A stretch of 64,000 nucleotides of DNA from a virus (Duplodnaviria; Caudoviricetes): positions 25,836-89,835 of the IMG/VR virus record IMGVR_UViG_3300032309_002614; one strand, given 5' to 3'. Below are positions 24,060-51,652 of the stretch, in pieces. Positions within the stretch are counted from its first letter, which is position 1, and each line of letters opens with the position of its first letter. Position numbers and translations under genes: made by a program. A model generated the notes under the pieces. That model ran no database searches. It was not told where the DNA came from and saw only the letters and a program-made list of their open reading frames with translations.

Positions 24060-24281
24060 ATGTCTGAAGATTATAATAATAATAGTTATGATGCAGTCCT
24101 ATCAAGGATGGAACAAAAATTAGACACTATTGTTGAAAATATTGACAACATTAAAAAAGGCCAGAAAGATTTGGAAATGCGAGTTTCTGGTCTGGAGTAT
24201 TTTAAATATTATTTAGCGGGAATAGTCGCAGCGGTTTCAGTTGGTGCTAATTATTTAATAAATAAAGTCAAAAACGGCTAA
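24060..24281 (+). CDS. Coiled coil plus C-terminal TM protein (holin/XhlA-like architecture)
   Basis: LSRMEQKLDTI...LE then YYLAGIVAAVSVGANYLI. Confidence 0.5.
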   Translation: MSEDYNNNSYDAVLSRMEQKLDTIVENIDNIKKGQKDLEMRVSGLEYFKYYLAGIVAAVSVGANYLINKVKNG

Positions 24282-43562: not shown

Positions 43563-44228
43563 ATGTATAAAATAAATAAAGATTATTTCAAATTTATAAA
43601 TAATAAAGATAAAGCTTATTTTTTAGGTCTTTTTTACGCTGATGGCAATAATTATGTGGCAGGCAAAATAAAACAAGCTTCTTTAGAATTGCTGTTAGAA
43701 GATATTAAAATCATACAAATGTTAAAAAATAAAATAGAGACAGATAAACCAATTAAACTTAGAAAAGCGAAAACAGATAAAAATTCTTTTAAAATAAAAG
43801 AAAGATGTGGCCTAGTTTTATCTAGCCATCAAATTTCTGACGACTTATGCAAACATGGATGCATCCCTAGAAAAACTTTTAATTTAAAATTCCCTTCTGA
43901 AGAGTCTCTTTCTAAACAATTTTATCCATCCTTTATAAGGGGTTATTTTGATGGAGATGGATGCGTATATACAGGAAAAAGTATTATGAGTTCTATATGC
44001 GGTTATCATCCATTTATTTATCATTTATTTAACCTTCTTAAGAAAGAAAATTTAAACGTTAAGCTTTACCTTCATAAAAGAATTAAATCTTTTTCAGTGT
44101 TGTATATACAAGGAAAAAAAGATAATATAGATTTTTATAATTATCTATATGATGAAAGCGAGTTATTCTTAGATAGAAAAAAAGAAAAATTTATGGATAT
44201 AATTAAAATGCAGAAAGGGCAAGGGTAA
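43563..44228 (+). mobile_element. Double-motif LAGLIDADG homing endonuclease
   Basis: AYFLGLFYADG and FIRGYFDGDG. Confidence 0.92.
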
Positions 44229-47362: not shown

Positions 47363-47437
47363 GCCGGAGTAGCTCAATAGTAGAGCAATACTTTTGTAAA
47401 GTAAAGGTTGCAGGTGCAAATCCTGTCTTCGGCTCCA
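47363..47437 (+). tRNA. tRNA-Thr(UGU)
   Basis: GCCGGAG/CTTCGGC, loop TTTGTAA, GCAGG-TGCAAAT-CCTGT, CCA. Confidence 0.9.
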
Positions 47438-47443
47438 ATTTTT

Positions 47444-47908
47444 ATGAAAAGAAGTTTGTATAAAGATGAAATCTTCAGGTTGAGATCTGAAGGTAAAACA
47501 GGAAATGAAATTTCTAAGCTTCTCAAATGTTCAAGAACATTAGTTTCTTATTACATAGATCTAGGTTATCAAAAAAAACATCAAAATCGATCTAAGACTT
47601 TTAAAAAGACTAATAGATTTGCAAAGAAAGAAGAGATAAGAAACAAGTTTGGCGGCAAATGTCAAATTTGTTCTTATGACAAGTGTCAAAGTGTACTGAG
47701 TTTTCATCATCTTCCCGGTACAGATAAAAAGTTTACTATTTCAGATGCGATAGTAAGAAAAAGAAAATCAGATGAAGAATTAGTGAATGAGTTGAAAAAA
47801 TGTATTTTGGTTTGTGCGAATTGTCACGGTGAGATTCATGCGGGGATCACAGAAATTCCAGAAGGTATCAAGAATCCCTTGACAATCAGTGAAAGTATGG
47901 TAAATTGA
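47444..47908 (+). mobile_element. HTH plus HNH homing endonuclease
   Basis: G.TG.EISK.L.CSRTLVSYY; CQIC...L.FHH; KCILVCANCH.EIH. Confidence 0.85.
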
Positions 47909-47995
47909 TCGTGTTCTTTGGATGCAGCAGGTAGTTGAAGATAGTTTGAAGTTTCTGCTAAGTCCGCTTGACAATCGGTGAAAGTGTGATAGATT
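47879..47995 (+). promoter_or_regulatory. Tandem near-duplicate sigma70 promoters for the stable-RNA cluster
   Basis: TTGACAATCAGTGAAAGTATGGTAAATT (47879) and TTGACAATCGGTGAAAGTGTGATAGATT (47968), each followed by GTTCTTT. Confidence 0.8.
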
Positions 47996-48012: not shown

Positions 48013-48086
48013 GGGATTGAAGCTTTAAAGTGAAGCAATAAACTTTTAATTTATTGAAGAGGGAGCGTTACCCTCCAGTCCTACCA
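48013..48086 (+). tRNA. tRNA-Lys(UUU), atypical D/T loops
   Basis: GGGATTG/CAGTCCT, ATAAA-CTTTTAA-TTTAT, GAGGG-AGCGTTA-CCCTC, CCA. Confidence 0.88.
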
Positions 48087-48108
48087 TTTTTTTTGTTCTT
48101 TATAAGCT

Positions 48109-48333
48109 TTGAGCGGTTGATGATTTATATCTAATGTGTGTTAGATATATTTGAGGAATTATTCCTTCCCGCTCAATTAATTTGAGTAAAGAAGTAGATT
48201 TTATCTTAGAGTGATATAAGATAAATTTCGAAGTAATTGGAATTACACTTTACTCTATTTTTAAGTAAGATAGTAGAAGTTATTATGAATCGCATAATAT
48301 CTTTGAAGGTAATTGGTATTACAATCTTACTTA
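48109..48333 (+). ncRNA. Three tandem ~70-nt three-way-junction RNA units of unknown family
   Basis: Units 48109-48176, 48184-48255, 48262-48333, each with a closing stem and two internal hairpins. Confidence 0.7.
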
Positions 48334-48367
48334 GTTCTTTTAAAATTTAATATGTAGTAGTTTCTGT

Positions 48368-48875
48368 GAGTCATTAGCTCAAGGGTAGAGCAAAAAACTT
48401 AGCGTATACAGCAATGTATACTGGGTCCATATAGTAGAAATATTATATGCGTATGGTGTAAATTCGGTGAACGGCTCGATTTAATAAGTCAACCCAACGC
48501 CGAGCGAAGTTTTAGGCAAACGCTAGAGAAATAATAGAAGAAAGGATTGTGGGTAAATAGGTGCAATAGTGACCTACCATGATTGCTAGGCTACCCGTCT
48601 AGCCACTTAATTGTGATAAATTCTATAGCCTCATAATAAAAAACGTGTAGAGACTATAATCACCTATCTAAATTTGTGTGTAAAGGGTAGTCTCAACTAT
48701 CGGAATAAAATACAAATATGATAAAGGCATAGTCCAGACCACAAACAATGAAATCAGTTGTATATGGTGGTCCTTTAGGCCATTTAAATTATAACTCGTC
48801 AAAAGACCGTTGGTAGTGAAAACTATAGTGGTAAGCATAATTTTTCGGTTATTCGTTCGAATCGAATATGACTCA
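48368..48875 (+). tRNA. tRNA(CAU) (elongator Met or Ile2) interrupted by a group I intron; exons 48368-48399 and 48836-48875
   Basis: GAGTCAT/ATGACTC, GCTC/GAGC D-stem, AAAAA-CT|CATAA-TTTTT, ATTCG-TTCGAAT-CGAAT. Confidence 0.88.
48400..48835 (+). mobile_element. ORF-less group I intron (436 nt)
   Basis: U33 5' splice site with P1 U-G pair, terminal G; P AAATTCGGTGAA(48460), Q AACGCCGAGCGAAG(48496), R GTGTAGAGACTA(48645), S AAAGGCATAGTCC(48723). Confidence 0.9.
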
Positions 48876-49059: not shown

Positions 49060-49722
49060 TTACAATTTTGAATTTATTATATTTACTATAATATCTAAGT
49101 ATTTTTGAGCTTTGTCAGGTTTGAAATAATTTAAACTAGATGTATCAATAATACATAATTCAATACTCTTCTCTAAGCAAGCTTGAAATTTACGCTGATC
49201 GTTGTTTTTGATTTGATCTAGTTTATTTAAACCATAAATTGGTTCGTAATGAAAAATGCCATTAAGCTCAAAAGCAAGCTTTAATATTGGAATATAAATA
49301 TCTAGTTCAGAGTTAATTGTGTCTTTACGATTAAAATGAAATTCTAAATTTGGATATTTATTTGGTAACGCTTGTTCAAAGTATATTTCCATTTTTGATC
49401 TTCTGCATCCATGAGTCTTATGGGTATTATTATAAGTGGCGGCACAAGAAGACGAACAAAAAGAGTTAGGATGTTTTTTTAATTGATTGCGTGTTTTTAA
49501 AAACGCTTTGTCACATTGTCTGCACGTTACTTCTTTTCTTTTATCTTTCGCTTTAACGCTGCAAGCATTGGAGCAAAAATGATTCTTATAAGAACGTAGT
49601 TTTAGATTAGATTTTATATATTTCTGCATTTTCTCAAAATTTTGTTGGCAATAGTCGCACTTAACAGGTATCATCTGAGTAGCTTTAAAAGATAACATTT
49701 GTTCTATTGAAATTAAAAGCAT
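49060..49722 (-). mobile_element. Zn-ribbon plus Vsr-like/PD-(D/E)xK homing endonuclease
   Basis: CDYC, FCSNAC, CRQC, FCSSSC; ELDIYIP.LKLAFELNGIFHY. Confidence 0.8.
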
Positions 49723-50548: not shown

Positions 50549-51652
50549 TTATATTTGATAGTCTAAAATTTGTTTCGCTTCGAATTTAGCCCAATATCCT
50601 CTATCGGGCTTAATTATTTTATATTTTTTGCACCATTTAGCTATAGCTACGTCTGAAACTCCAAGTTTTTTAGATAACTGTACAGCCGACATACTCCAAA
50701 CAAGTTCATGCAGTTCAGATTTCGATGGGCGAGCAACTTTTCTTCTCTTAAATCTCATACAAGGCATACAAAGTTTAGCGATTTTAGTTTTTTGCTGGCC
50801 GCACTGACAAAAACTGTAGATTGGATCAATAATTTTTTTCTCTATTTTTTGTGGTTTTTCTTTTTGAATTGAAATTTTCTTTCTATCTTTTATACAGCTT
50901 TTACATTTTATGTTTTGATAGTGTTGAAATTCAATACCGCAGACTGCACAGTTTTTTTTGTTTTTTTCTAACTTGTTCTTTATATACTCCTCATAATTAA
51001 ACTCAATTTTATTCTCTACCGCTGAGATTTGATTTATTAAATTAAGTATATATTCTTCATTGAAACATAGCGAATAATGTATTTCATAAAGCTTATATCC
51101 AAGACATTGTATATAATCATGTCGATCTTGATAATACTTTTTTAATTTACCATCTCTTTCGTAATGTTGATTGCCATTTATTTCAAAACCAATCATTTTT
51201 TCTGGAAAAACGATATCAATTGAATAATTTCGGTCACAATTTGGGGTAAATTCTTCTATAAAATTAAAATTATTTTCGCGCAAAATCTTTTTAAAATTCT
51301 CGCACGGTTCAGATTTAAATTTATCTTTTGATTTCCAAGGGTGTTTATCAGGATTATCGCGCAAAAATTGCTTTCTTTTTTCTGATAAAAGTTTTTTTGT
51401 ATTTTCAGACAGCTTGTTCAAGCCTAAATCACGATAGCATTTTTGGCAATGATTATTGATATTCCTATCGTCTATTGAGATATTACAATTCTGACAATAT
51501 TTAGAAGGCTTTTTATGGCGACTCCATCTTGCTACAGAACTCGCTTTACAAGAACATTTTTGAGAACAATAATGATGTTTTGAAGTAGGTATTCGGTAAT
51601 TTTCTTTTAAAAATTCTTTACTACATAATGAGCAGTTAACTAAAGTTTTCAT
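50549..51652 (-). mobile_element. Zn-ribbon plus Vsr/DUF559-like nuclease plus C-terminal HTH (homing endonuclease-like)
   Basis: CSLC, YCSQKC, YSIDIVF....GFEINGNQHY, S...LSKKLGVSDVAIAKWC. Confidence 0.8.

Follow-up and report, generated by a model that had tools for sequence, protein, structure and literature searches.

A probable group I intron that interrupts a phage tRNA(CAU) gene at its anticodon loop, and its relatives in viral and bacterial tRNA genes

Group I introns have long been known in the anticodon loops of bacterial and plastid tRNAs, among them tRNA-Leu(UAA), tRNA-fMet, the tRNA-Ile(CAU) of Azoarcus, and tRNA-Arg(CCU). Phage group I introns are known from protein-coding genes, for instance td, nrdB, and sunY of T4 or genes of Twort, Bastille-like, and crAss-like phages, and they are often accompanied by HNH or GIY-YIG nucleases. 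The Azoarcus intron is 205 nt long (PMC13168695), and both the Azoarcus and the Anabaena tRNA introns have guide sequences of 3 nt (PMC2241849). The cyanobacterial tRNA-fMet intron is found with or without the PD-(D/E)XK endonuclease I-SspI, according to the work of Bonocora and Shub (2001) as it is cited in a 2014 review (PMC3984707). By the account of the same review, all phage introns known to date were in protein-coding genes, despite the many tRNA genes that phages carry (PMC3984707). A later description of group I introns in phage tRNA genes was not found in the open full-text literature. In effect, phage tRNA genes as a setting for this kind of intron appear not to have been described previously.

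Here, we analyze a 64,000-nt stretch of viral DNA (the window), in which a tRNA(CAU) gene on the plus strand is split by a 436-nt insert between U33 and C34. The 5′ exon (tRNA positions 1-33) is found at 48368-48399 and the 3′ exon (positions 34-73) at 48836-48875, as indicated by the sequence itself, by an alignment with the intron-less contig L228, and, for the 5′ exon, by ARAGORN on the joined exons. The insert between them, at 48400-48835 on the plus strand, is very probably a group I intron that is intact and without an ORF, belongs to the IC3-like type of bacterial tRNA introns, and splices at the U33/C34 site of the phage tRNA(CAU). This is seen in its alignment to an Rfam model, in its score with a model of its own family, and in its absence from L228. 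The kind of intron is itself already known, and the window intron joins the bacterial tRNA group I introns.

The Azoarcus intron likewise belongs to group I, lacks an ORF, and interrupts the anticodon loop of a tRNA with CAU. Its core strings are presumably very similar to AAAUUCGG.GAA, GUGUAGAGACUA, and AAGGCAUAGUCC of the window. Both introns also have a short guide (3 nt; PMC2241849), a P9.0 helix, and a 3′ hairpin capped by GAAA. By contrast, the window intron, with its 436 nt, has expanded P1, P5, P6, P8, and P9 regions, and its host gene is encoded by a phage. The sequence-only reading of this DNA had placed the two introns at the same position, which is wrong: the Azoarcus guide pairs with the triplet CAU (PMC2241849), and the Azoarcus intron thus follows U36, whereas the window intron follows U33. 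The cyanobacterial tRNA-fMet intron also interrupts a CAU anticodon loop, and some viral relatives of the window intron encode a PD-(D/E)XK protein (PF11645); nevertheless, the tRNA of the window is no initiator, and there is no ORF in its intron. In comparison with the phage introns of protein-coding genes, the difference lies in the host gene, which is a tRNA.

The extent of the insert is fixed by L228, a close syntenic viral contig with 86-95% nucleotide identity to the window over several kilobases. The alignment between the two stops at 48399 and restarts at 48836, and L228 is itself ungapped at this point. Since L228 is contiguous across these positions, 48400-48835 is exactly the inserted segment, in full agreement with the coordinates and the length of 436 nt that had been read from the sequence alone. 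The intron-less junction, AGCAAAAAACT followed directly by CATAATTTTTCGG, is present exactly in two IMG/VR contigs, one of which is L228. In the tRNA cluster that L228 shares with the window, which comprises Thr, Lys, CAU, Ile-UAU, Glu, Leu-UAA, Arg, and Asn, no intron is found in any gene. The insert itself holds no sense-strand ORF of at least 60 aa and no terminal repeats.

Read from the sequence, the 5′ exon consists of the acceptor strand GAGTCAT, the D arm GCTC/GAGC, and the anticodon stem strand AAAAA followed by CT; it therefore ends in ...AAAAACU, with U33 as the splice-site U. The 3′ exon starts with CATAATTTTT and comprises CAT-AA, the stem strand TTTTT, the variable loop CGGTT, a canonical T arm (ATTCG-TTCGAAT-CGAAT), the acceptor strand ATGACTC, and the discriminator A; CCA is not encoded by the gene. 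The anticodon stem AAAAA/UUUUU is kept whole around the insertion, which lies directly 3′ of a U. The split gene is missed in the window by both ARAGORN and the Rfam tRNA model. When the exons are joined, ARAGORN reports a 72-nt tRNA(CAT) in which all stem positions are paired. The loop of this cloverleaf is CT-CAT-AA, the same loop that splicing had been expected to restore and, with these boundaries, would restore. Compared with the tRNA of L228, the exons show four compensatory changes on both sides of a pair (acceptor pairs 2:71 and 6:67; T-stem pairs 51:63 and 52:62) and one change from G.U to A-U. The four double changes suggest that selection still maintains the interrupted gene as a tRNA, and the differences could also be recombinational in origin.

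At its gathering threshold, Rfam reports no intron in the window. The generic group I model, RF00028, aligns over its full length at 48406-48752 with 18.7 bits (E 0.024), the operational cut-off of this model, its gathering score, being 50 bits. RF00028 is known to have given nothing in cases where subtype models succeeded (Nawrocki et al. 2018; PMC6125680). A family covariance model (R1), built from 29 short relatives (185-215 nt) with the window left out, gives a single match in the 64-kb window, at 48407-48847, with 93.3 bits and an E-value of 7e-21. In addition, when the helices of the window were projected on a 29-sequence alignment (A2), 87% of the cells were paired, as against 35-44% in controls in which the partners were slid by 1-3 columns. 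Changes on both sides were observed in 45 of 68 pairs, and none of 500 shuffles attained the observed values. The lower values for P1, P5, and P8 in A2 are due to MAFFT register shifts between introns at 33/34 and at 34/35. The window has the consensus residue at each of the 46 invariant A2 columns. For a separate set of short introns, RNAalifold recovers the anticodon stem, P2-P6, P8, P9.0, P9, and the terminal hairpin, whereas the single-sequence fold of the window intron is only modestly better than that of shuffles (z -1.9). A second match to the core motif, at 24183-24200 on the minus strand, was rejected as a chance match in coding DNA with no group I features.

All helices were assigned in window coordinates on the plus strand, and pairing was verified at each position. 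P1 is formed by 48397-48401 with 48422-48426. Its exon part has 3 bp (U48399.G48424 at the splice site, C48398-G48425, and A48397-U48426) and is followed by two pairs on the intron side. The guide sequence, UGGGU, is read at 48422-48426, and P1 is extended by a 6-bp hairpin seen in the sequence (48404-48409 with 48416-48421). The 9-bp P2 hairpin (48428-48436 with 48441-48449) has a GAAA loop and is found by RNAalifold and in the MFE fold; in A2, it shows changes on both sides at 9 of 9 pairs, with 84% of the cells paired. P3 has 4 bp (48455-48458 with 48661-48664) and is paired in 96% of the A2 cells, while P4 (48464-48469 with 48498-48503), which comes after J3/4, reaches 99%, both with compensatory changes. 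P5 (48473-48474 with 48494-48495), which carries a small P5a hairpin, is assigned in the window and recovered by RNAalifold. P6 (48504-48506 with 48644-48646) is paired in 97% of the A2 cells and shows a swap between C-G and G-C, and P6a (48510-48513 with 48638-48641) is paired in 95%; it bears a peripheral extension of about 124 nt (48514-48637).

The 3′ half of the core follows the same pattern. P7 consists of G48650-C48735, a bulged A48651, and the pairs of 48652-48656 with 48730-48734; it makes a pseudoknot with P3 and is paired in 98% of the A2 cells, and relatives show swaps between A-U and U-A and between U-A and C-G. From the established anatomy of group I introns, we take G48652-C48734 to be the position of the guanosine-binding pair. 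P8 (48665-48668 with 48720-48723), which has an additional inner helix, is supported by RNAalifold, A2, and R1, and J8/7, with the sequence AAAGGCA, lies between P8 and the 3′ strand of P7 (48730-48735). P9.0 (48738-48742 with 48828-48832) and the GAAA hairpin (48813-48817 with 48822-48826) are invariant in the 29 sequences; the expanded P9 (48746-48750 with 48808-48812) is found by RNAalifold. The intron ends in AA and the terminal G48835, a G that is invariant in the 29 aligned relatives and whose boundary is fixed by L228. The U-G pair of P1 (U48399.G48424), the P/Q/R/S core, and the terminal G that the sequence-only reading had recognized are thus in place with all other core elements. With the empty site in L228 and the 93.3 bits of the family model, its proposal that a group I intron lacking an ORF lies between U33 and C34 of a tRNA(CAU) encoded by a phage is borne out.

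Judging from these elements, splicing would proceed as follows. The end of the exon, A-C-U, would pair with the guide G-G-U (48424-48426) to form a short P1 with the U33.G48424 wobble, and this P1 would be prolonged on the intron side by the 6-bp hairpin. A free guanosine, held at the P7 pair G48652-C48734, would then attack after U33. Subsequently, the terminal G48835, placed by P9.0, would take the guanosine site, and the exons would be joined. The expected product, a tRNA of 72 nt, would have the loop CU-CAU-AA and the junction ...AAAAACU-CAUAAUUUUU.

The guide sequence differs between hosts. For instance, GGGUCC faces GGACU in a tRNA-Leu gene interrupted at 33/34, GGGGCC faces GCCU in a Lys gene, GGCAGC faces GCUGU in an Asn gene, and GAGU faces ACUU in tRNA-Leu at 34/35 (the guide sites of L042, L010, and L001 were read by eye, the others by an automatic finder). 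As the guide changes together with the exon across hosts, P1 is also supported by covariation. The guide of the window, GGGUCC, matches tRNA-Leu exons (GGACU) better than its own exon (AAACU). Three exon pairs in P1 are found in 16 of the 63 distinct family introns, and an exon pairing of 3 bp is normal for bacterial tRNA group I introns.

Given this weak pairing, the insert might be seen as a decaying relic that no longer splices, in which case the tRNA(CAU) gene would be dead in the phage. The exon part of P1 is indeed short and non-optimal, with 3 bp and a guide that is better for Leu exons, and P3 is short as well. Nevertheless, two other CAU-hosted copies, L010 and L087, have the same 3-bp P1 arrangement, the invariant core positions are all kept, every helix is intact, and the exons hold a perfect cloverleaf through four compensatory changes, so that a relic seems very unlikely. 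The failure to reach the Rfam gathering threshold might instead suggest an element of another type that resembles the group I core, such as a group II intron, an insertion sequence, a protein-spliced tRNA intron, or an assembly chimera. Against this stand the covariation of the full set of group I helices, the E-value of 7e-21 with the family model, the recurrence of this architecture in over 200 independent contigs, invariably 3′ of an anticodon-loop U, and the lack of ORFs and terminal repeats in the insert. The helix covariation and the R1 score effectively refute any such element, to which we assign next to no probability. The intron is probably active, its catalysis being predicted from the preserved structure.

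An intron that splices may still be kept for different reasons. It could be retained for the benefit of the phage, either because it destroys the site recognized by endonucleases that cleave tRNA genes in the anticodon region and so confers immunity against homing nucleases, or because it gates the supply of the tRNA in infection. In favor of such a benefit, free-standing HNH genes abound in the tRNA cluster, at positions that vary from one relative to another, longer members of the intron family encode HNH or PD-(D/E)XK endonucleases, and introns and nuclease genes are found in alternative places of related clusters. By contrast, the closest relative, L228, manages without the intron, and a selfish element would explain the patchy distribution just as well. 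We know of no target site for any of these nucleases. A benefit to the phage is considered unlikely.

The identity of the tRNA has three candidates: initiator, elongator Met, and Ile2, the lysidine type with the anticodon CAU. An initiator is expected to have a mismatch at 1:72 and three G-C pairs at 29-31:39-41, and neither is found in the window tRNA. It has instead a paired G1-C72, an anticodon stem of AAAAA/UUUUU, and C-G at 11:24, which upholds the earlier view that the hallmarks of initiators are missing. BLAST with the spliced tRNA gives no match among E. coli genomes, and consequently its identity can be approached only via orthologs. The syntenic intron-less ortholog in L011 has its best match in E. 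coli genes annotated as tRNA-Ile with the anticodon CAU (81.6%) and scores 59/73 for tRNA-Ile(CAU) and 48/74 for metT. The AT-rich window tRNA is equidistant from both (46/73 for tRNA-Ile(CAU) and 46/74 for metT). In the window as well as in its relatives, a gene for tRNA-Ile(UAU) adjoins that of tRNA(CAU). By orthology, the balance tips slightly toward Ile2 rather than Met.

Relatives of the window intron are widespread. A search with the P7-P8-P7′ pattern led to 16 viral contigs, and BLAST to homologous introns with up to 88% identity. Exact copies of the 22-mer at 48811-48832, directly before the AAG end, are carried by at least 120 contigs of IMG/VR and by 87 contigs from bacteria. When candidate exons were joined and then tested by ARAGORN, 69 credible viral cases were resolved, 63 of them distinct; two solutions that gave a "tRNA-Phe" with 2898 nt (L046 and L070) were discarded as artefacts. 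About half of the viral cases (35 of 69) are at the classical 34/35 site of tRNA-Leu(UAA), where the introns are ribozymes of the same kind as that of the window. The window copy differs from these in being at 33/34 of tRNA(CAU), as in nine cases including the window itself, and eight further tRNA-Leu(UAA) genes are also split at 33/34. The remaining viral hosts are UCA tRNAs, which resemble opal suppressors (seven, at 34/35), tRNA-Arg(UCU) (four, at 34/35), tRNA-Lys(UUU) (three), and tRNA-Ile(UAU), tRNA-Ser(UGA), and tRNA-Asn(GUU) (one each). The viral UCA tRNAs, which ARAGORN calls "SeC", are those of L066, L067, L068, L080, L110, L118, and L130.

In bacteria, 40 cases were resolved: tRNA-Tyr(GUA) at 35/36 (14), tRNA-Arg(UCU) at 34/35 (12), tRNA-Leu(UAA) at 34/35 (eight), CAU tRNAs at 33/34 (four), and tRNA-Thr(UGU) and a UCA tRNA, both at 34/35 (one each). 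The UCA case is that of L192, a bacterial MAG. The insertion is directly 3′ of a U in the anticodon loop in all resolved relatives, viral (69/69) and bacterial (40/40). Bacterial members are found in chromosomes of Lysinibacillus, Arcicella, Marinomonas, and Psittacicella and in many MAGs. Among the CAU cases, three Cytophagales genes are initiator-like and have introns at 33/34, and one Psittacicella gene scores higher with E. coli tRNA-Ile(CAU) (61/75) than with metT (54/76). Several species of Lysinibacillus (L139, L143, L145, L154, and L170), some represented by complete chromosomes, carry introns of 258-637 nt at 34/35 of tRNA-Arg(UCU). Longer members of the family encode endonucleases, with HNH proteins in Leu introns and PD-(D/E)XK proteins (PF11645) in some of the introns of UCA tRNAs. 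Bacterial tRNA-Leu usually has a long variable arm. A tRNA with the anticodon UAA in L001 (4760-5230), split at 33/34 by a family intron, has a variable loop of 5 nt and no long Leu arm.

Described phages offer fewer cases. Neither the intron region of the window nor the 20 kb around it gave a BLAST match to GenBank phages; a shorter query from a minimal relative gave partial matches. In Microcoleus phage My-WqHQDG (OR578706; L225, 414-699), a "tRNA-Arg" of 286 nt is a CCU tRNA with an intron after U36, which scores 126 bits with R1 and has no intron annotation or note in the GenBank record. As in the window, a phage tRNA harbors a family intron, with the difference that the anticodon is CCU and the site is after U36. 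Since the annotated tRNA spans the intron, phage tRNA introns are already present, unremarked, in databases. A family ribozyme is also found in a crAss-like Kolpuevirus (OQ198718; L226, 458-672; R1, 91 bits), between the CDS of a GIY endonuclease and that of a replicative helicase, and is probably an intron in a protein-coding gene.

The interrupted gene varies between related clusters: it is CAU in the window, Lys and Leu in L013, Leu in L011 and L006, and none in L228. The introns themselves are similarly mixed. Window positions 48493-48675, which contain the P6a extension, are 98.9% identical to the tRNA-Lys intron of L108, and 48493-48755 are 88% identical to the tRNA-Leu intron of L012; P8 of the window resembles that of L008, unlike the 48493-48675 module. 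As the best relative differs from segment to segment, these introns are mosaics that have recently moved from one tRNA species to another. The copy in the window most likely derives from a sister intron that resided in a different tRNA gene of a related phage and was transferred through either transposition or recombination, and an origin in a Leu or Lys gene is plausible, given that the GGGUCC guide fits Leu exons best.

More broadly, the window might represent one hop of an abundant, undescribed population of introns that moves between the anticodon loops of phage tRNAs (Leu, Lys, Ile2/Met, Arg, and UCA). The hop would be a recent transfer from Leu or Lys to CAU, in which the Leu-adapted GGGUCC was kept and its poor pairing with the exon is made up for by a newly gained P1 extension. 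We hold this possibility tentatively, at somewhat less than even chances. If it is correct, the sole requirements of a hop are a U and a match of two or three bases, which would be in keeping with reverse splicing and subsequent recombination.

The presence of these introns in phage tRNA genes contradicts the picture of phage introns that live only in protein-coding genes (PMC3984707), and by the present scans, tRNA introns are common in uncultured phages, as indicated by the contigs with the 22-mer (at least 120). Because split genes are missed by ARAGORN and by the Rfam tRNA model in the runs of this analysis, the tRNA repertoires of phages are under-counted. The missed genes include suppressor-like UCA tRNAs, which are relevant for calling recoded phages, in which TGA is reassigned. 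In addition, the filled and empty sites in near-identical clusters (the window, L228, L013, and L011) are a natural system for the spread of ORF-less introns, to which nearly identical intron modules in different tRNA species add. The family also comprises many compact natural ribozyme variants (185-215 nt) with differing guide sequences. As a single locus, the window intron represents ordinary biochemistry; its value to specialists lies in the breadth of the family, in the hopping between tRNA species, and in the blind spot of annotation.

Within and beside the tRNA cluster of the window, there are three genes of the HNH type and one of the LAGLIDADG type (47408-47908, 49060-49722, 50549-51652, and 43563-44228), and the positions of nuclease genes around the cluster differ among the window, L013, and L228. 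A free-standing HNH endonuclease gene (47408-47908, plus strand; PHROGs HNH, E 7e-25) is found after tRNA-Thr and shares 40% identity with an HNH gene located elsewhere in the cluster of L013. A free-standing HNH-like gene (49060-49722, minus strand; PHROGs HNH/homing endonuclease, E 4e-13) lies between tRNA-Glu and the intron-less tRNA-Leu(UAA). Kinship of the latter gene with the HNH gene of L013 was also considered and rejected, as comparison shows the two to be unrelated. In L228, tRNA-Glu (596-670) and tRNA-Leu (463-538) are 57 nt apart, which leaves no room for a gene of the 49060-49722 type. These neighboring nucleases might mobilize the intron in trans, as the sequence-only reading had suggested, or might be blocked by it. 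The HNH proteins of the window and those encoded in the longer introns share similarity only at the level of motifs and are not close relatives.

Other features of the cluster were also observed. The spacer between tRNA-Lys and tRNA(CAU) (48087-48367) has about 280 nt in the window, compared with 42 nt in L228. The tRNA-Lys(UUU) gene at 48013-48086 has a non-canonical T loop, AGCGTTA; it scores 43.8 bits with Rfam and is missed by ARAGORN. A promoter-like repeat, consisting of TTGACA, 16 nt, TAGATT, and then GTCAATGTTCTTTAAA, is found before individual tRNA genes, at 47968-47995 in the window and at similar sites in L013. Upstream of the split tRNA(CAU) gene, there is only a weak match to this unit, at 48318-48346.
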